From Escherichia coli (GTDB lineage: Bacteria > Pseudomonadota > Gammaproteobacteria > Enterobacterales > Enterobacteriaceae), in the NCBI RefSeq assembly GCF_003991155.1, contig NZ_CP031293.1: a stretch of 64,000 nt of DNA; one strand, written 5' to 3'. Positions 3,791 to 37,357 of this stretch are shown here, piece after piece. A program made the translations under genes and the position numbers. Within the stretch, counting starts at the first letter, position 1. Every line of letters begins with the position of its first letter. A model generated the notes under the pieces. That model saw only the letters and a list, made by a program, of their open reading frames with translations. It ran no database searches and was not told the origin of the DNA.

Positions 3791-6700
3791 GTGAAGTTTT
3801 TTGCCCTCTTCATTTACCGCCCGGTGGCGACGATTTTACTGTCGGTCGCCATTACCCTGTGCGGCATACTGGGTTTCCGTATGCTGCCAGTCGCCTCGCT
3901 GCCGCAGGTCGATTTTCCGGTGATCATGGTCAGCGCCTCGCTGCCCGGTGCGTCACCAGAAACAATGGCGTCTTCCGTTGCCACGCCGCTGGAGCGCTCA
4001 CTTGGGCGCATTGCCGGAGTCAGCGAAATGACCTCCAGCAGTTCGCTCGGCAGCACGCGCATTATTTTGCAGTTTGATTTTGACCGGGATATCAACGGCG
4101 CAGCGCGCGATGTGCAGGCGGCGATCAACGCCGCGCAAAGTCTGCTACCCAGCGGGATGCCCAGCCGTCCGACCTATCGCAAAGCGAACCCATCGGATGC
4201 GCCAATTATGATCCTCACGCTGACATCCGATACTTATTCGCAGGGTGAACTGTACGATTTCGCCTCGACACAGCTGGCTCCGACAATTTCGCAAATCGAC
4301 GGTGTCGGTGATGTCGATGTCGGCGGCAGCTCACTGCCCGCCGTACGCGTCGGGCTGAATCCGCAGGCGCTGTTTAATCAGGGCGTCTCGCTGGACGACG
4401 TACGCACTGCCATCAGCAATGCCAACGTGCGTAAACCGCAGGGCGCACTGGAAGATGGCACCCACCGCTGGCAGATCCAGACCAATGACGAACTGAAAAC
4501 TGCCGCTGAATATCAGCCGCTAATTATTCATTACAACAACGGCGGAGCGGTTCGTCTGGGCGATGTGGCGACGGTGACCGACTCAGTACAGGATGTGCGC
4601 AACGCCGGGATGACCAACGCCAAACCGGCTATTTTGCTGATGATCCGCAAGCTGCCGGAAGCCAATATTATCCAGACGGTAGACAGCATCCGCGCCCGTC
4701 TGCCGGAATTACAATCCACCATCCCGGCAGCAATTGATCTGCAAATTGCCCAGGATCGCTCCCCTACTATCCGCGCGTCGCTGGAAGAGGTTGAGCAGAC
4801 GCTGATTATCTCGGTGGCGCTGGTGATTCTGGTGGTGTTTTTATTCCTGCGCTCGGGTCGCGCCACTATTATTCCCGCCGTTGCGGTGCCGGTTTCGCTG
4901 ATTGGTACGTTTGCGGCGATGTACCTGTGCGGATTCAGTCTCAATAACCTTTCGTTAATGGCACTCACCATCGCTACTGGTTTCGTGGTGGATGACGCCA
5001 TCGTGGTGCTGGAAAACATTGCCCGTCATCTGGAAGCGGGGATGAAACCGCTACAGGCCGCGCTACAAGGTACTCGCGAAGTCGGCTTTACGGTGCTGTC
5101 GATGAGTCTGTCACTGGTGGCGGTGTTCCTGCCGCTGCTGTTGATGGGCGGATTGCCGGGTCGCCTGTTACGCGAGTTTGCCGTGACGCTTTCTGTCGCC
5201 ATTGGTATTTCGTTGCTGGTTTCCCTGACGTTAACGCCGATGATGTGCGGCTGGATGCTGAAAGCCAGCAAGCCGCGCGAGCAAAAGCGACTGCGTGGTT
5301 TTGGTCGCATGTTGGTAGCCCTGCAACAAGGCTATGGCAAGTCGCTGAAATGGGTGCTCAATCATACCCGTCTGGTGGGCGTGGTGCTGCTTGGCACCAT
5401 TGCGCTGAATATCTGGCTGTATATCTCGATCCCGAAAACCTTCTTCCCGGAGCAGGACACAGGCGTACTGATGGGCGGGATACAGGCTGACCAGAGTATT
5501 TCGTTTCAGGCGATGCGCGGCAAGTTGCAGGACTTCATGAAAATTATCCGTGACGATCCGGCGGTGGATAATGTCACCGGCTTTACTGGCGGTTCACGGG
5601 TGAACAGTGGAATGATGTTTATCACGCTTAAACCACGCGGCGAGCGGAGCGAAACGGCCCAGCAAATTATCGACCGTCTGCGGGTAAAGCTGGCGAAAGA
5701 GCCGGGGGCGAATCTGTTCCTGATGGCGGTACAGGATATTCGCGTTGGCGGACGTCAGTCGAACGCCAGCTATCAGTACACGTTACTGTCCGACGACCTG
5801 GCGGCACTGCGCGAATGGGAGCCGAAAATTCGCAAAAAACTGGCGACGTTGCCGGAACTGGCGGACGTGAACTCCGACCAGCAGGATAACGGCGCGGAAA
5901 TGAATCTGGTTTACGACCGCGACACCATGGCACGGCTGGGAATCGACGTGCAGGCCGCCAACAGCCTGTTAAATAACGCCTTCGGTCAGCGGCAAATCTC
6001 GACCATTTACCAGCCGATGAACCAGTATAAAGTGGTGATGGAAGTGGATCCGCGCTATACCCAGGACATCAGTGCGCTGGAAAAAATGTTCGTTATCAAT
6101 AACGAAGGAAAAGCGATCCCGCTGTCGTATTTCGCTAAATGGCAACCGGCGAATGCCCCACTATCGGTGAATCATCAGGGATTATCGGCGGCCTCGACCA
6201 TCTCGTTCAACCTGCCGACCGGGAAATCGCTCTCGGACGCCAGTGCGGCGATCGATCGCGCAATGACCCAGCTTGGTGTGCCTTCGACGGTGCGCGGCAG
6301 TTTTGCCGGCACGGCGCAGGTGTTCCAGGAGACGATGAACTCGCAGGTGATCCTGATTATCGCCGCCATCGCCACGGTGTATATCGTGCTGGGTATCCTT
6401 TACGAGAGTTACGTACATCCGCTGACGATCCTCTCCACCCTGCCCTCGGCGGGCGTTGGTGCGCTGCTGGCGCTGGAGCTGTTTAATGCCCCGTTCAGCC
6501 TAATCGCCCTGATAGGAATCATGCTATTAATCGGCATCGTGAAGAAAAACGCCATTATGATGGTCGATTTTGCGCTCGAAGCCCAACGGCACGGTAACCT
6601 GACGCCGCAGGAAGCTATTTTCCAGGCCTGTCTGCTGCGTTTTCGCCCGATTATGATGACTACCCTGGCGGCGCTGTTTGGCGCGCTGCCGCTGGTGTTG

Positions 6701-29491: not shown

Positions 29492-29625
29492 AGTTTGCTC
29501 CTGCCATAACGTGAAGAAGCAATGACCTGGTGGTCCGTGACTTCCCTACGCTGGCATTATCCAGATCAGGTGATACGGGTATTTCTCAGCCTTCACGCAG
29601 AAGGGCACCCCGAGTCGTTTGGTTG
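29492..29625 (-). promoter_or_regulatory. thiM TPP (thi-box) riboswitch: aptamer plus SD-sequestering expression platform
   Basis: The minus strand reads ..AACCAAACGACUCGGGGUGCCCUUCUGCGUGAAGGCUGAGAAAUACCCGUAUCACCUGAUCUGGAUAAUGCCAGCGUAGGGAAGUCACGGACCACCAGGUCAUUGCUUCUUCACGUUAUGGCAGGAGCAAACUAUG. This is the well-studied E. coli thiM riboswitch sequence. Confidence 0.93.
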
Positions 29626-29837: not shown

Positions 29838-30077
29838 ATGACAGAAACCCAGATCTACGAGAACATTAAGCAAGCCATTAGCAGCGCACCACGAAATAGC
29901 CAAACGATGGAAATGCACCTCCAGATGATCAAATATGCTGACCATCTGAAAAAGGTTACGGCAAAAGAGTTTTGTGAAGGTGTAGGACTTAAAGCCAGCT
30001 TTGGTACAGAGTTCAGCAAAATGAGAAATCTTACCGAGCGACTCAAAGCTGCTGGACTTGACACCACGAAGTTATAA
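29838..30077 (+). CDS. Hypothetical small protein (79 aa), island-borne
   Basis: ORF preceded by an AT-rich promoter-like region and GGTGAGATAAAAAATG. No family recognised. Confidence 0.5.
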   Translation: MTETQIYENIKQAISSAPRNSQTMEMHLQMIKYADHLKKVTAKEFCEGVGLKASFGTEFSKMRNLTERLKAAGLDTTKL

Positions 30078-30242
30078 AAAACAAATCATCAATATATTAT
30101 TTTTGTTTTCCAGACTTACTTGCATATGTTTCTACGAGCATAAAAAACAACAACCACCACATAGCTATTACCATAATAATGTTTTCCTTTTATATTAAAC
30201 AGAGAAATAGAATTAGAGCGTGGAATAGATGAATTCTATTTT

Positions 30243-31548: not shown

Positions 31549-33312
31549 AAAAAACTCCTTATTCAGTTAAAAGAAAAACACCTTGCAAGCCTGACGGCTT
31601 CAAAGTGCATTGATTTTGATTATTTAGAGAAGAATGTTTTTCTGTCCCTCTAGTACCTATTATTACATATAAATAAACATTTGTCAATATCTTTTCATAA
31701 AAAATCAGAACCTTTTCATGCACTTACATTTTTTCTTAGCGATTCGTGCTCTCCTGTGTAGTGCTATTCTTCATTACCAGCTAAAACGCTCTAAAACGCG
31801 TTCTAACGAAGTTTTGATAAAAGCAATACATTCTCTTATGTAATGGCTGTTTAGCTCGCCAGAGGCTTATTTAAGTGGCTTATTTTGTATTTGTTAGATG
31901 ATGATAGATATAAAACAGAGAGTTCTTAGATTAGTTACTTTATAAAACGCTCTGTAAAGCCCTGTAGTGAGTTTATATATGTAGGCAAAGCGGTTTCCAT
32001 TCTCTACCCTGCTTAATGCTGTTAGAGAAGCATTTAGACCCCTTATTTTTAATTACCTAAAGTATCCTCTATACATCTCTGTTATGAAACACCTCTGAAT
32101 CCTTCATAAAACACATTATGACGCAAAGAACACTTTTCTAAGGTGATTCCCTTCCTGAACTCTGTTTCTTGCGTCAGAGAGCTACACAGAGAGCTTATAA
32201 AGCTATTATTAATAATAAAGTAGATAAAGTAAGTAAGATAAGTAAGAAGATTAACTAAGATAGATAAGATTAATAAGATCAGAATTCTCTTTCGGTGTCG
32301 CCTCTGGCTTTTCCACCGAAAACAATTACACGACTACAGAATGTAGGAAGTGAAATTGTATTGAGGCTTAGTGAAATTACACGAGGAAAGCAGAGTGTAA
32401 TTGAGCTTTAGCCGCTCTCTCTTCGAGTAATTACACAACTACAGAGAATAACAGAGTTATTAAATGTAGGAGGGTAATTAAGAGTTAGAGAGAGTTAACA
32501 CGTAAGCAATCAGATGATTGGTTAGGTGATTACTCTTACTGCGCACAGCGCAATAGTATTCCTTCGTGGGCGTTACCGCCAACGATAGTTACACGAAGAA
32601 AGTAACGCTTTGCTTTCGGTGTGAGCGGAACGGGCCAGCCACAAAGCCCGAAAGGTAGCGGAGTAAGGCTGCTTGCCAGAGAGTGGAGCTAACGCCGGAA
32701 GGCAAAAGATCATATATATAGTATAAAGAATATTATTTAATTATAGTATTGGTGGAACTCATTACCTAAGGTAAACCGGAGACCACTTCCAACGGTTAGG
32801 CAACCACTTCCAATTGTGTTATTTCCCCTTTTACCCTAAGTAAATTTTAGCCTTTCGTTACATCCATTTATCACATAGCACTTACCCTGTGTAAATCATA
32901 GAATAATGCTCTCTATTCCCTGTGTAATTCCATACTAAAAAATTCAATGAAAAGTAGTTTAAAAGTGCAATGTTAGCTTTCTTCACTTTTACATCACTTT
33001 CGCTGCGCCTTGTGTAATGCGGCTTACAGAGCACTATCAGAAATTATTGATCAAAAATCAACCTATTATTTGTCGAACAAGTTTTCTTTAATGCAACAAA
33101 AATTATTTTTTCAAAATAAACACACAATTTAATAGCTTGCTAATTTTACCAAAATGTAACTACATGATTCTCATGCAAGAAGTGTAGTGATAAGGCAGGC
33201 TAAATCACCACACTAAAAAACTTCGAATTTCGTAGTGAAAAAAGTACTTTACACACCTAATCAACACGCCCAATAATCACTACACACAAATCAATACAGA
33301 AGAAAAAAGAAG
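31549..33312. other. 1.76-kb ORF-free, motif-dense region: candidate replication origin and/or structured ncRNA locus
   Basis: No ORF of 60 aa or more in any frame. ATTACAC/GTGTAAT heptamers occur in both orientations (32325, 32376, 32430 / 32395, 32922, 33012, and variant 32889). There is a C-poor TAAG-rich tract (32211-32280), a GC-richer hairpin-rich core (about 32520-32700) and a pure AT stretch (32711-32750). Confidence 0.5.
33182..33213. promoter_or_regulatory. Candidate recombinase binding (res-like) site: GTGTAGTGAT-N12-ATCACCACAC
   Basis: 10-bp inverted half-sites (1 mismatch) lie 100 bp upstream of the serine recombinase gene. Further half-site copies are at 33230 (+) and 33276 (-). 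Confidence 0.4.
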
Positions 33313-33864
33313 ATGGCTAATATTGGATACATTAGGGTATCGACTGTGCAACAAAACACAGACCGTCAATTAGCAGGAGTAACTCTTGATAAAGTCTTTG
33401 AAGATAAAGCGTCAGGCAAGAACACTCAGCGCCCACAGTTTGAGGCAATGATGAACTATGTGCGGGAGGGTGACGTGTTACACGTCCATAGTATTGATCG
33501 CCTTTGTCGTAATACAGCCGACCTTCTGGCAACTGTAGAGCAATTAACAAAGCGCGGCGTGTCTGTGCATTTCCATAAAGAAGACTTTAAGACAGGAAAG
33601 AACTCTCCCGCAGGGAATATGATGCTCACAGTTCTTGCAGCAGTGGCACAAATGGAACGTGAAATGATGCTTGAGCGTCAACGTGAAGGGATCGCCGCAG
33701 CCAAGGCCGCTGGACGTATAGCAAAACGTGGTAATGGAAAAGCAATTGATCGAGCGGGAATTGCTGCCGCTCTCGCGAATGGTGGCTCAATTCGGAGCGT
33801 AGCAAAAGATTTCAGTGTCAGCACGCAGACGGTGCAACGTATCAAGAAAGAGCAGGTGGCGTAA
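33313..33864 (+). CDS. Small serine recombinase (resolvase/invertase family, 183 aa)
   Basis: MANIGYIRVSTVQQNTDRQ catalytic-Ser motif, the D..HVHSIDRL.R motif, and a C-terminal HTH (SIRSVAKDFSVSTQTVQRI). Confidence 0.88.
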   Translation: MANIGYIRVSTVQQNTDRQLAGVTLDKVFEDKASGKNTQRPQFEAMMNYVREGDVLHVHSIDRLCRNTADLLATVEQLTKRGVSVHFHKEDFKTGKNSPAGNMMLTVLAAVAQMEREMMLERQREGIAAAKAAGRIAKRGNGKAIDRAGIAAALANGGSIRSVAKDFSVSTQTVQRIKKEQVA

Positions 33865-34030: not shown

Positions 34031-34495
34031 TTATTGATTCAGTCGATCCCATTTAACCGCAGATACAATTCCCCAATTACCACTAGCATTAGGCCTACGC
34101 CACTTCGCGGTTTCCATTCCACGAAGGTATTCGAGAGCTTCATTGAACGAACTGAAACGTTTCTGGGCTGATTTTTCCCCTACTCTAAACGAACCATCGC
34201 GAGTACTTGCCAATCCTGGATGAAAACACGACCCATCTGCAGCATAAGGAACAAGTACCTCCTGATCATCAGGTTTCCTTGAATCAGAAGCCAGTAACTG
34301 CCAAGGCTCAATACGCAAAGCGTCAGCCAGAACCTCAATTGCATCAAGAGATGCATTAGAGCAACCACGCTCAATTCGACTCATATAACTACGTGCAAAA
34401 CCACACCGATCTGCAAAGGCCTCTTGGCTTAAGCCAATAGCTATACGGAACTCTTTTACTCGTTGTCCAAAAAGGTATCTCAGATTCTTTCGCAT
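34031..34495 (-). CDS. XRE-family HTH regulator with an uncharacterised C-terminal domain (154 aa from MRKNL)
   Basis: HTH_3 pattern (LFGQRVKEFRIAIGLSQEAFADRCGFARSYMSRIERGCSNASLDAIEVLADAL), then about 85 aa with no recognised family. Confidence 0.75.
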   Translation of the reverse strand: MRKNLRYLFGQRVKEFRIAIGLSQEAFADRCGFARSYMSRIERGCSNASLDAIEVLADALRIEPWQLLASDSRKPDDQEVLVPYAADGSCFHPGLASTRDGSFRVGEKSAQKRFSSFNEALEYLRGMETAKWRRPNASGNWGIVSAVKWDRLNQ

Positions 34496-34605
34496 GGCAC
34501 AAAGATGCAATTTGACGCACCAATTAACCACGCACTAATCGTGACATTTTGAATCAATCATGTATTATTAGCATCACCATCCATTTGACACACCAAGGGA
34601 GACAA

Positions 34606-34953
34606 ATGAAAAAACTAGTATTTGCCGCTTTGTTAATTCCAGTGATGGGCCACGCCACAACCTTTTCCTGTAAAGCAATACAGGAAGGTCATATTGACTC
34701 GGGAAGTCAGAAAGTTTCTGTAGATTCAACTTTTGATATACAAGATAAAAAAATGACCATAAATCTTGGCGGTAAAACTTGGAGACTTGATTTGGTAGGT
34801 CAAAAAAGCATCGCAAAGATGTATGCTACACCTGACGGAGGGGTTGCAGCCACATACATTGACAATGGCAGTATACCGATATTTGTATTACGCCCTTCTA
34901 ATCCCGATGGGGAGATGGCTGTTTACACATTGAGTATGTGTTCTGAAGTATGA
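34606..34953 (+). CDS. Small secreted protein of unknown function (115 aa)
   Basis: Signal peptide MKKLVFAALLIPVMGHA/TT, AAGGGAG RBS, and a terminator directly downstream. Confidence 0.6.
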   Translation: MKKLVFAALLIPVMGHATTFSCKAIQEGHIDSGSQKVSVDSTFDIQDKKMTINLGGKTWRLDLVGQKSIAKMYATPDGGVAATYIDNGSIPIFVLRPSNPDGEMAVYTLSMCSEV

Positions 34954-34959
34954 TTGATC

Positions 34960-34983
34960 GGCGTGATATTCACGCCGTTTTTG
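34960..34983 (+). terminator. Rho-independent terminator
   Basis: GGCGTGA-TAT-TCACGCC followed by GTTTTT. Confidence 0.7.
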
Positions 34984-35030: not shown

Positions 35031-35756
35031 CTATTTATTAACAGGTAGTAATGTCAGATCGCCATAATGGGCTTGTCTATGGCAATTAGGACATAATGCA
35101 ATAGCATTTTCCACAGAGTCCTCCCCCCCCTTTGAAAGCCACTCAATATGATGAACTTCTAGAAATGGAGTACCATCTTCCTTTAGAAAAGGAGCATCTC
35201 GCTTACAATATTGACATTTTCCATTTGCACTCAAAAGAACTTCAGCAACTACATATGGGCTTCGTTTATAAACTCGTGTTGTTACTTCGATTAGTTCCGG
35301 GATTTTACTTTCTGTCGCTAAAATTTGCTTTCGTTCCACTGAAGATAATTTTGCAGCCGTCTCAACAGCTTCTTCGAAAACCGATTTTACTTGACGATAA
35401 CGCCACATCCCTTCTAAATCCTGGTATAATTCCCAAATACCGTGCACAGATGGTTGATAGATTTCAAAAATATTTCCACGCTTGAACAATCGGTCATACT
35501 TATGATGCCGATGAGTTACATCATCAGTTCGTCGGGCAGTTTTGTTGAAACTCCAGTAGCTCCGCTTACAATTAACTGTATTAGCAATTAAATTGAGCCA
35601 AGTATTATCTTTATAAGATGGAAATAGCTTTCTAAGATAATCATCTACCTGCTTAGCCGTTGCAGCCCCACCAAACTGATTAGCAATTATCTGTATGGTA
35701 ATAGCTCTTATCGGTTGATCGCCATACTTGTATTTTTTGCCTAAATTTTTAACCAT
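35031..35756 (-). CDS. HNH nuclease with a roughly 160-aa uncharacterised N-terminal domain (241 aa); candidate type IV-like restriction/defence nuclease
   Basis: C-terminal HNH: CQYC...FLEVHHIEWLSKGGEDSVENAIALCPNCHRQAH (McrA-like beta-beta-alpha-Me with CxxC...CxxC). The N-terminal region is not recognisable. Confidence 0.75.
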   Translation of the reverse strand: MVKNLGKKYKYGDQPIRAITIQIIANQFGGAATAKQVDDYLRKLFPSYKDNTWLNLIANTVNCKRSYWSFNKTARRTDDVTHRHHKYDRLFKRGNIFEIYQPSVHGIWELYQDLEGMWRYRQVKSVFEEAVETAAKLSSVERKQILATESKIPELIEVTTRVYKRSPYVVAEVLLSANGKCQYCKRDAPFLKEDGTPFLEVHHIEWLSKGGEDSVENAIALCPNCHRQAHYGDLTLLPVNK

Positions 35757-35884
35757 AGAAGACTCACTAAGCCTAAATTCATCTTAAGTTATTATTGTAA
35801 ATTAGTTGTGAAAATTTTTGATCTCAGACAATAAAAATCTACAAATTATTAGCTGGTTATACACTAAGAAGGATACACGAATAA

Positions 35885-37192
35885 CTAAGTCTCCCAACAA
35901 AGACCATCGATCACATAACAAACGGTGGAAAGTGGGAATGTGTGCAGATAACGCTGGGTAATCCCTACTCCACTCTTTTCATGACCTACCACCTGTTGCA
36001 GATGCGCCAAATTACTCACCCAACCAGCTAAACAAGTAGAAATCATAGTATGCCGGAAACTATGCACCAAGCGCCGCTGCCCATAATCATCAAGATAAGG
36101 AATATCAAGCTGATCACGAACATCTGAAAGAACTTTACCTATCTTTGACATATTTCGACCTGAGACTTCCGAAAAGATTTTCTCTTTCCATTGGCGGTTA
36201 ACAAAATCCAGAAACCCCCACTCAATCAGTTTGGGATGAATCACTACCTGTCTTGTAGCATTCTCAGTTTTACCCAGCCTTCTTTCCGCGATCAGAAGAT
36301 AGTGCCGCTGGCTATCTTCATCAAATTTGATCTGCGACTTCTCCAGTTTAGCAATCTCACCTCTTCTGGCTCCTGTGTACGCCAACAACAAAGTGATCCA
36401 CTTCTGCCATCCATCAGGCTGCTTTAGTGCCCATCCTACAAATTTTTTCATTTCTGCTGCACTGTATGCACCAAACCTAGCTTTGGATGGTGCCGCTACT
36501 ATTCCATCAGTCGGAGACTTAGATAGAATATCTTTGTTTTCAGTCAGAAATGTTTTGAATAACGATTTGTAGATTTTAAGGTGCTTATGTACAGCCTCAG
36601 CACCAACTAAATCCTCTGGCAGCACATCATCACATTCGATTAGTTGCTGAATAGTCATTGACCTATACGGTTGCACTACACGCTTTGGTAAGTTTTCGAC
36701 AGTTTCCATTACTCGCTTAATATCTTGTTTGGTGATTGCCGTTACGTCTGTTTCTTTTCCCAAGACAACAAGCAATACCTCCATATAACGCTCATTTGCC
36801 ATTGAGATCGATTTTGTCCAATTTCGACCTCTTTCCTCCTTGTACATAGCCCACGCATCAGCAAGTGTTAGCACCTTTTCCGGTTTGGCTGGTGGTTGAA
36901 GCTGCAAAACTTCTTTAGAAATATTGTTCAATTGCTGAGGGAGTGGCAACGGAATCATTACGTTACGTGACGAAGCGATCAAGTTTGAAACAAACTTATT
37001 AAATTGTGGCAACGGAGTAGCGAGTGATTTAACGAAAGGAATGTGCGGAGTAAGGCCAATCATCAACGCCGATGCTTCGCGATAACTGTCAGTAAAAAGT
37101 GATTTTTTGTATATCCGACCATCCGAAAGCCGGATTTGTAGATAGTAATTACCGTTTCGCTGAAATGTGTATGGGAGAGTTCTTGACCTCAT
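35885..37192 (-). CDS. Tyrosine recombinase / phage-type integrase (435 aa from MRSRTLPYTF)
   Basis: Catalytic region ...TGARRGEI...HSFRHT...GHEKSGVGITQRYLH (R-H-R-Y). AGGGGG RBS before ATG 37192. Adjacent to the right att repeat. Confidence 0.9.
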   Translation of the reverse strand: MRSRTLPYTFQRNGNYYLQIRLSDGRIYKKSLFTDSYREASALMIGLTPHIPFVKSLATPLPQFNKFVSNLIASSRNVMIPLPLPQQLNNISKEVLQLQPPAKPEKVLTLADAWAMYKEERGRNWTKSISMANERYMEVLLVVLGKETDVTAITKQDIKRVMETVENLPKRVVQPYRSMTIQQLIECDDVLPEDLVGAEAVHKHLKIYKSLFKTFLTENKDILSKSPTDGIVAAPSKARFGAYSAAEMKKFVGWALKQPDGWQKWITLLLAYTGARRGEIAKLEKSQIKFDEDSQRHYLLIAERRLGKTENATRQVVIHPKLIEWGFLDFVNRQWKEKIFSEVSGRNMSKIGKVLSDVRDQLDIPYLDDYGQRRLVHSFRHTMISTCLAGWVSNLAHLQQVVGHEKSGVGITQRYLHTFPLSTVCYVIDGLCWET

Positions 37193-37275
37193 AAACGCCC
37201 CCTTTTTGTACCTTAACAGCATGATTTATGGTCAAAAAGAGATACAACCACATAATTTTCAAGACTATTTTGGCC

Positions 37276-37357
37276 CCCTACGCTGGCATTATCCAGATCA
37301 GGTGATACGGGTATTTCTCAGCCTTCACGCAGAAGGGCACCCCGAGTCGTTTGGTTG
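37276..37357 (-). promoter_or_regulatory. Second (orphan) copy of the thiM TPP aptamer, on the native promoter side of the island
   Basis: 100% identical to 29544-29625. It lacks the ..AAGUCACGG.. continuation and the expression platform, and is followed 83 nt later by the integrase start codon. Confidence 0.85.

Follow-up and report, generated by a model that had tools for sequence, protein, structure and literature searches.

A candidate modification-dependent restriction enzyme with a predicted winged-helix reader and a McrA-type HNH module in a thiM-riboswitch island of Escherichia coli

In EcoKMcrA, encoded by the e14 prophage of Escherichia coli K-12 (PDB 6ghc; PMC6182155, PMC7145662), an N-terminal reader of 5-methylcytosine (5mC) and 5-hydroxymethylcytosine (5hmC), NEco, is joined to a C-terminal HNH nuclease with a beta-beta-alpha-metal fold, a Cys4 zinc site and His and Asn residues. 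Other modification-dependent (type IV) enzymes use other readers. VcaM4I and TspA15I are EVE-HNH enzymes; the EVE domain of VcaM4I reads 5mC and 5hmC, and VcaM4I is dependent on these marks (PMC6765204, PMC11037411); TagI and ScoA3IV have a beta-barrel of the SRA/PUA type; the phosphorothioate-dependent ScoMcrA has an SBD upstream of its HNH; and in McrBC the specificity module is McrB's N-terminal domain (PMC11090510). Stand-alone type IV enzymes in which a winged helix precedes an HNH have also been published (Helbrecht 2024, PMC11037411). They were found via the winged helix of DpnI type, and those tested read Dam-methylated G6mATC and are toxic in Dam+ E. coli (PMC11037411); Dam is present in only 1.75% of their host genomes (PMC11037411, supplement). 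Here we analyse an HNH gene at positions 35031-35756, on the minus strand of a 64,000-nucleotide stretch of an E. coli chromosome (contig NZ_CP031293.1; the window), which an earlier note made from the sequence alone had proposed as a type IV-like defence gene. Its product shares a nuclease module with EcoKMcrA and carries a predicted winged helix where NEco would be.

The HNH gene and its two domains

The open reading frame (ORF) encodes a protein of 241 amino acids (aa). An identical coding sequence (CDS) is named 'HNH endonuclease' (WP_000240373.1) by RefSeq in genomes 99.9% identical to this one. The features of the gene and of the DNA directly upstream of it are as follows.

35031..35756, minus strand: complete CDS of the HNH nuclease, ATG start, 241 aa (ORF list; RefSeq CDS identical)
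35382..35741, minus strand: N-terminal domain, aa 6-125, a predicted winged helix and candidate sensor
35277..35381, minus strand: helical linker, aa 126-160, with helices at 126-135 and 139-148 in the AlphaFold2 (AF2) model
35061..35276, minus strand: HNH (beta-beta-alpha-metal) nuclease domain, aa 161-232
35757..35884, minus strand: AT-rich gap between the integrase stop and the HNH start, 128 base pairs, 26.6% GC
35885..37222 (RefSeq start 37192), minus strand: tyrosine integrase of the island, immediately upstream of the HNH gene (Pfam PF00589)

We found 496 database homologues of the 241-aa protein. Compared with a 77%-identical allele, the ratio of nonsynonymous to synonymous substitution rates (dN/dS) was 0.11 in the N-terminal domain and 0.015 in the HNH domain, with synonymous sites near saturation. 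The homologues and the low dN/dS indicate that the ORF is not due to chance; it is undamaged, and purifying selection on it is strong. The AF2 model of the whole protein (predicted local distance difference test score, pLDDT, 83.9) is laid out as a winged helix of DUF7669-like type, a helical linker and a McrA-type HNH.

The McrA-type HNH that the earlier note had placed at the C-terminus is borne out by the translation and by profile searches. Pfam HNH (PF01844) matched aa 181-230 (E 1.2e-12) as the sole Pfam match in the protein, and phmmer aligned aa 141-232 with residues 176-268 of EcoKMcrA 6ghc (E 8.5e-23; about 45% identity, counted on the printed alignment). As the homology with EcoKMcrA runs from aa 141, it begins in the helix before the HNH core, beyond the 70-aa finger. 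The finger holds a Cys4 zinc site (C181, C184, C222 and C225) together with H202/H203, N217, H226 and H230, and the motif C181-x2-C184, H202-H203, N217, C222-x2-C225-H226, H230 is invariant in 33 homologues of 60-84% identity. The catalytic and zinc residues are complete and McrA-like. Outside this module the likeness ended: the PADLOC family mREase_IV was matched (E 1.9e-23) with positions 1-174 of its McrA model left unmatched, NCBIfam NF045808 aligned to aa 157-236 only, at 29 bits against a cut-off of 180, and PDB entries 5zmm (SBD-HNH type) and 6ghs (SRA-HNH type) aligned to the HNH part only. A McrA-like label already exists in databases (an IMG cluster is called '5-methylcytosine-specific restriction protein A' and one NCBI record 'Predicted restriction endonuclease'), yet it derives solely from the HNH part.

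The N-terminal part had been described as unrecognised, which is true for the standard libraries: aa 1-140 gave no match in Pfam, NCBIfam, PADLOC or PHROG other than a sub-threshold Forkhead match of 14 bits. PDB sequence searches, with the whole protein and with a 56-sequence domain profile, returned no solved relative of this domain and no DpnI. The length of about 160 aa given for it needs correction; the globular part spans roughly aa 6-125, and aa 126-160 form the linker helices.

A search with aa 1-137 against 1.84 billion cluster representatives yielded 58 proteins at E<=1e-3, and the 56-sequence domain alignment built from these relatives was the basis of a model of the isolated domain (pLDDT 93.6; predicted template modelling score 0.83). 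The predicted fold comprises a helix (16-27), a strand (31-33), a second helix (34-44) and a recognition helix (52-58). After these come an insertion, conserved and some 30 residues long (aa 59-89), then the wing hairpin (90-93/96-99) and, past a short helix, another hairpin (108-112/118-122). The confident prediction is thus a winged helix that carries, in addition, a conserved insertion and one more hairpin, in agreement with the winged-helix guess of the earlier note. Across the domain alignment N62, D88 and G106 are invariant, V61, R65, R75, L90, Y100 and H105 are at least 90% conserved, and the superfamily signature reads SVN..sR.....N..PRRTD.G..yD.LFk.G....YElYdP..HGvWEi. Six of these residues (N62, R65, R75, D88, Y100 and H105) make up a conserved polar and aromatic cluster.

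How this domain stands to the known readers was examined by fold. Foldseek with the N-terminal domain returned nothing at E<=0.001. Since NEco (McrA), SRA (TagI) and SBD (ScoMcrA) were not returned by the fold and PDB-profile searches, we excluded them as the reader of this protein. For EcoKMcrA, the alignment was limited to aa 141-232 and 6ghc did not appear in the fold search; as the N-terminal readers are unrelated, the specificity of EcoKMcrA is not transferable. Likewise, the SBD of ScoMcrA was not found upstream of the HNH, and where TagI and ScoA3IV have a beta-barrel the protein has a predicted alpha/beta winged helix. The published winged-helix-HNH enzymes are similar in plan, sharing the winged helix N-terminal to the HNH, the size class (224-283 aa) and the stand-alone state without a methyltransferase (PMC11037411). 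The domain studied here differs in its 30-aa conserved insertion, its second hairpin and its weak match to DpnI.

Relatives, fusion partners and distribution

Next, we asked which known family the N-terminal domain belongs to. Pfam DUF7669 (PF24706) was matched by 26 of the 47 relatives scanned, in the region aligned to the query, and the phmmer matches down to E 1e-9 were proteins whose matched region is DUF7669. The domain itself gave no match to the DUF7669 model even at E<=10 (gathering threshold 23 bits). A 47%-identical relative (P0122) reached 14.3 bits and a 37%-identical one (P0130) 25.3 bits. When the enterobacterial N-terminal domains were aligned by hhalign with the DUF7669-positive domains, the two groups matched over 123 columns at 99.9% probability (E 7.6e-32). 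By this transitive, profile-to-profile homology the domain belongs to the DUF7669 superfamily as one of its divergent branches. About 120 aa are conserved as a unit, compared with 75 positions in the Pfam model.

The partners to which these relatives are fused are informative. They were HNH_2 in 23 proteins, HNH in 7, a NucS_C nuclease of the PD-(D/E)xK type in 2, and a McrB-type AAA_5 GTPase and a resolvase in one each; a separate search found six more NucS_C PD-(D/E)xK fusions. The HNH_2 partner matches PDB 6yex, which we take to be the EVE-HNH type IV enzyme VcaM4I. In these relatives the domain precedes the same type of HNH_2 as in VcaM4I and stands in place of its EVE reader; the protein of the window differs from VcaM4I in having a McrA-type HNH instead of HNH_2 and a winged helix instead of a PUA/EVE barrel. 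In the GTPase fusion (P0143, 736 aa; DUF7669-DUF8426-AAA_5-McrB_lid) the domain replaces the N-terminal specificity domain of a McrB whose McrC gene (PF10117) follows directly. Unlike McrBC, the protein of the window has no GTPase and no McrC partner and would be a one-protein system. Homologues of the domain have therefore been recombined with four restriction-type effectors: 1) the McrA-type HNH; 2) the HNH_2 of VcaM4I type; 3) the PD-(D/E)xK nuclease of NucS type; and 4) McrBC. Its repeated occurrence in slots otherwise held by modification readers is the strongest evidence for a sensor role, which this architectural argument favours.

Distant relatives were solitary or lay in defence-like neighbourhoods. 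In some, a further domain at the N-terminus matches DUF3427 weakly or matches PDC-S36, a protein with tandem DUF7669 domains adjoins DUF1156/DUF499 genes, a NucS_C fusion is solitary among housekeeping genes, and an HNH_2 fusion lies near WYL, AAA and PD-(D/E)xK genes.

We then examined the distribution of the family with both domains. It was present in 99 of 5,426 complete E. coli genomes (1.8%), 68 with the window allele and 31 with alleles of 60-80% identity, one copy being split by IS1 with the surrounding locus still there. The family also occurs across Klebsiella, Enterobacter, Salmonella, Serratia and Pantoea, and 14 of the records are plasmids. A Klebsiella homologue is flanked by a SRAP (YedK-like) gene on one side and by umuDC on the other, and a retron-type reverse transcriptase and an AAA_15/AAA_21 ATPase are encoded nearby; a Citrobacter homologue lies beside insertion sequence elements, and a Pantoea homologue among housekeeping genes. 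On plasmids, a homologue occupies 154-873 of a 4.7-kb Pectobacterium plasmid that also encodes a Fic protein (NZ_KT351736.1; N-terminal domain 59% identical), and another occupies 4635-5366 of an IncX5 conjugative KPC-2 plasmid, 1 kb from the ISKpn6/blaKPC-2 segment (NZ_OQ821038.1; 77% identical).

No DNA methyltransferase gene adjoined the family in six settings, namely the thiM island of the window, Klebsiella, Citrobacter, Pantoea, the 4.7-kb plasmid and the IncX5 plasmids, and no partner, antitoxin or regulator gene was conserved beside it across them. None of the ten island ORFs scanned with Pfam was a methyltransferase or terminase, and no terminase, capsid, intron or intein context was seen in any neighbourhood examined. 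The lack of methyltransferase, terminase and homing context that the earlier note had claimed for the locus thus extends to other neighbourhoods of the family. In all these settings, be they islands, plasmids or chromosomes, the gene behaves as a mobile single gene with no methyltransferase beside it. E. coli is Dam+, and dcm and vsr are intact in a host with a 99.9%-identical island.

Modification-dependent restriction and its alternatives

The reading that we favour, and hold to be moderately probable, is a type IV-like (modification-dependent) restriction endonuclease made of one polypeptide, in effect an EcoKMcrA with a swapped reader. The earlier note had reached a type IV-like reading by analogy, and the computational evidence supports it, with the fusions to HNH_2, NucS_C and McrB plus McrC in sensor slots speaking in its favour. 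So does a sister island described below, which encodes an AIPR abortive-infection protein and a member of the EcoBLMcrX family (DUF6998), whose type IV activity is proven (PMC5487053). Having no methyltransferase, a stand-alone nuclease must spare the DNA of its host, an argument made for solitary winged-helix-nuclease fusions in PMC11037411. The marks of Dam (G6mATC) and Dcm (C5mCWGG) are not what such an enzyme would read, because hosts of the family carry both and a solitary active nuclease would target their own DNA. Residence in Dam+/Dcm+ Enterobacterales sets the family apart from the Dam-avoiding enzymes of PMC11037411.

By analogy with EcoKMcrA (PMC6182155), the protein would dimerise via its McrA-like HNH module. 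The two winged-helix domains would bind incoming double-stranded DNA bearing a mark absent from the host chromosome, and the tethered HNH domains would cut near the bound site and block establishment of the phage or plasmid. The cofactor preference would probably be of the Mn2+/Co2+ type, as for McrA-like enzymes (PMC11037411). Inferred in this scheme are that the N-terminal domain binds DNA, that activity depends on modification, what kind of mark is read, that the protein dimerises, and that it acts against phages or plasmids.

A wider proposal, which we put forward only tentatively and think less likely to hold than not, is that the 120-aa winged helix of DUF7669 type is an unrecognised class of foreign-DNA reader, plugged into at least four effector chassis, and that in Enterobacterales it adds a specificity beyond those of McrA, McrBC, Mrr, GmrSD and McrX. 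Its targets may be hypermodified marks or marks other than those of Dam and Dcm, for example deazaguanines, Mom-type adenines, phosphorothioates or N4-methylcytosine; alternatively, its sensing of modification may be structure-agnostic.

Several observations weigh against modification-dependent restriction. The winged-helix match is generic: the winged helix of DpnI (4kyw) was matched at a Foldseek E of only 0.97 (template modelling score 0.32), and with NEco, SRA and SBD missing from the fold and profile matches the domain showed no specific likeness to any known modification reader in these searches. Nor can a specificity be borrowed from the known winged-helix-HNH enzymes, since these read Dam N6-methyladenine and the hosts of the family are Dam+. 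A McrA-like HNH of E. coli NILS69 belongs to a classical, methylation-blocked enzyme with adjacent methyltransferases (PMC12409345); McrA-likeness by itself is thus no proof of modification dependence, and it is the consistent absence of a methyltransferase that carries the argument. Our literature search found no paper on DUF7669 or on the RefSeq accessions and no function attached to DUF7669, so that the role proposed here for this and any DUF7669 protein is drawn from architecture and context. Expression of the HNH gene is likewise a prediction. The gap at 35757-35884, which the earlier note took for an AT-rich promoter region of the gene's own, is indeed AT-rich; a scan for consensus sigma-70 promoters found none on the gene's strand. 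The gap may still hold a promoter. No minus-strand terminator was predicted in it, and co-transcription with the integrase is possible. Finally, the position beside the integrase is kept in two diverged islands, which could point to a function in the island core.

Among the alternatives, the one that survives best, though we think it unlikely, is a modification-independent defence nuclease, whose winged helix would respond to a sequence specific to phage DNA, to a DNA structure or a replication intermediate, or to a phage protein and would then license the HNH, for abortive infection or direct sensing. The generic winged-helix match would suit such a sensor, and END nucleases provide a precedent for non-classical sensing (PMC12191111). 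Against it stand the occupation of known reader slots by the domain (at the N-terminus of a McrB accompanied by McrC, and where EVE would stand before an HNH_2 of VcaM4I type), the lack of a conserved partner, antitoxin or regulator gene across contexts, and the fact that the HNH module is closest to those of three modification-dependent enzymes.

A second alternative, which we judge distinctly improbable, gives the gene a core function in the thiM-riboswitch island, such as excision or transfer, killing of cells that lose the island, or exclusion of competitors for the attachment (att) site. It arises from a sister island, found at the same site and at one other, in which the order integrase - (86-aa ORF) - HNH is kept. 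Its integrase and HNH proteins are 82% and 77% identical to those of the window island, a similar divergence, and the rest of the island differs. The variable part of the sister island encodes an abortive-infection-type AIPR protein (PF10592) and several small ORFs, and at its thiM end a 143-aa DUF6998 protein lies beside an HTH_73 gene. The earlier note had described the HNH gene as island cargo between the integrase and a regulatory module; its place next to the integrase holds, and on this comparison the gene appears less a cargo gene than part of a conserved integrase-adjacent module, with the truly variable cargo just beyond. The uninterrupted run from integrase to HNH, free of a predicted terminator, is consistent with a core role as well. 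However, that integrase is missing beside the chromosomal family members of Klebsiella, Citrobacter and Pantoea and beside those on unrelated plasmids, the island of BL21(DE3) persists without its integrase and HNH genes, and the locus around the IS1-split copy is still there.

That the protein is a catalytically silent or decaying DNA-binding protein, a domesticated regulator or nascent pseudogene, seems very improbable. Several database entries are short (173-216 aa) and lack the HNH part, and many of the haloarchaeal winged-helix-HNH enzymes tested were inactive in vitro (PMC11037411, Table 1); however, many of the short entries are labelled 'partial' by their sources and may be contig-end fragments, and in the protein at hand the metal-binding and catalytic residues are all invariant in a domain under the strong constraint noted above. 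A phage-type HNH, be it a terminase-associated packaging factor or a homing endonuclease, is hardly credible: HNH families of PHROG do match the C-terminal 60-100 aa, but the best of them (15103) is an uncharacterised 280-aa family aligned to the McrA-like part only, the packaging and homing contexts are missing, and tblastn of the N-terminal domain gave 0 matches in 50,697 phage records. A distant relative with a PUA-like-winged-helix-HNH_2 layout did match phages by tblastn, via its HNH_2 part only, and HHPV4/HhiV4I was not among the matches.

If modification-dependent restriction is confirmed, E. coli and related bacteria would have one more family of this kind, in addition to McrA, McrBC, Mrr, GmrSD and McrX. 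An active enzyme could influence the host range of phages used in therapy and the spread of plasmids, its plasmid-borne forms could affect the entry of other elements into their hosts, and it might serve as a reagent for mapping DNA modification. The orphan Pfam domain DUF7669, recurring in several restriction chassis, gains a testable function. The class of stand-alone winged-helix-HNH type IV enzymes is already known, which keeps the advance incremental as long as no specificity has been assigned; the candidate reader family is uncharacterised, falls outside the Pfam model, has no solved structure, and resides in Dam+/Dcm+ hosts, in which the known winged-helix readers would be lethal.

The island in the thiM riboswitch

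The locus is the E. coli chromosomal region thiD-thiM ... rcnR-rcnA-yehABCD, in which the HNH gene belongs to an island 7.7 kb long, with a GC content of 39.4% against 49% for the window. Among the 5,426 complete E. coli genomes, about 5,300 have an empty site and 80 hold at least 80% of the island. Its ends are marked by a perfect direct repeat.

29544..29625, no strand given: attL, copy of the 82-nucleotide perfect direct repeat, in the thiM-proximal thiamine pyrophosphate (TPP) riboswitch (repeat search; Rfam RF00059, 71.2 bits)
37276..37357, no strand given: attR, the other copy of the repeat, inside a TPP riboswitch aptamer (repeat search; Rfam RF00059, 61.3 bits)

A complete aptamer that scores in Rfam is therefore present at each end of the island, at 29526-29625 and 37259-37357. 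The thiM-proximal copy keeps the native expression platform and has island DNA on its promoter side. The far copy keeps the native promoter side of thiM; on the same strand, the integrase comes next and the HNH gene after it. Because an aptamer lies upstream of both genes, their expression might respond to TPP. The integrase starts at ATG 37222, or at 37192 with the Shine-Dalgarno sequence AAGGGGG; a hairpin over the Shine-Dalgarno region is predicted, and the folding energy of the leader is ordinary (z = 0).

The same locus, adjoining thiM, carries EcoBLMcrX in E. coli B (PMC5487053), and intact sister islands carry both mcrX and the 77%-identical winged-helix-HNH gene. We considered whether the HNH gene could be EcoBLMcrX and rejected this, as McrX is a 143-aa DUF6998 protein, a BisI-family enzyme unrelated to HNH nucleases, and the window does not encode it; there, the slot filled by mcrX in E. 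coli B and the sister islands is empty. In BL21(DE3) an HTH_73 gene and the DUF6998 gene (143 aa, MSAREAY...) lie beside the thiM riboswitch, and the integrase-HNH end has been lost at an IS1. The published B-strain genetics are silent on the HNH gene because of that loss. A 79-aa HTH_73 gene at 29838-30242 of the window is 93.7% identical to the BL21(DE3) gene of ECD_02033 type upstream of EcoBLMcrX, disruption of which abolished rglA(B) restriction (PMC5487053). Type IV enzymes are already known from the thiM locus, and the island of the window holds a different candidate; if that candidate is active, the riboswitch att site would be a recurrent landing pad for such enzymes.

Downstream of the HNH gene, a terminator-like hairpin at 34959-34977 lies between its stop codon and a small-protein gene at 34549-34953 (plus strand). 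The small protein (115 aa in its RefSeq form) has an N-terminus that is signal-peptide-like by eye (MKKLVFAALLIPVMGHA...), matches no family, and is 62-65% identical to proteins of the sister islands that are encoded at another position and in another orientation. Beyond it, 34031-34531 (minus strand) encodes a 166-aa protein with an XRE/C-protein-like helix-turn-helix (PADLOC 'Control_protein', E 6.6e-17), the C-terminal domain of which, about 85 aa long, has no match. As a controller of the HNH gene this was rejected in the sense of an obligatory partner, since a convergent gene separates the two and the sister island has no homologue, and it is probably not a controller.

A stretch of 1.6 kb at 31724-33312 (36% GC) holds no ORF longer than 54 aa; E. 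coli islands located elsewhere on the chromosome share it at about 91% conservation. No Rfam match was found in it at E<=0.1, and its repeats are weak; an origin, a non-coding RNA and decayed genes are all conceivable. Beside this stretch, 33313-33864 (plus strand) encodes a serine recombinase of the resolvase/invertase type (183 aa), whose counterpart in the sister island is 46% identical. A lipoprotein-like gene that is placed differently in the window island and the sister island hints at rearrangement within the island.

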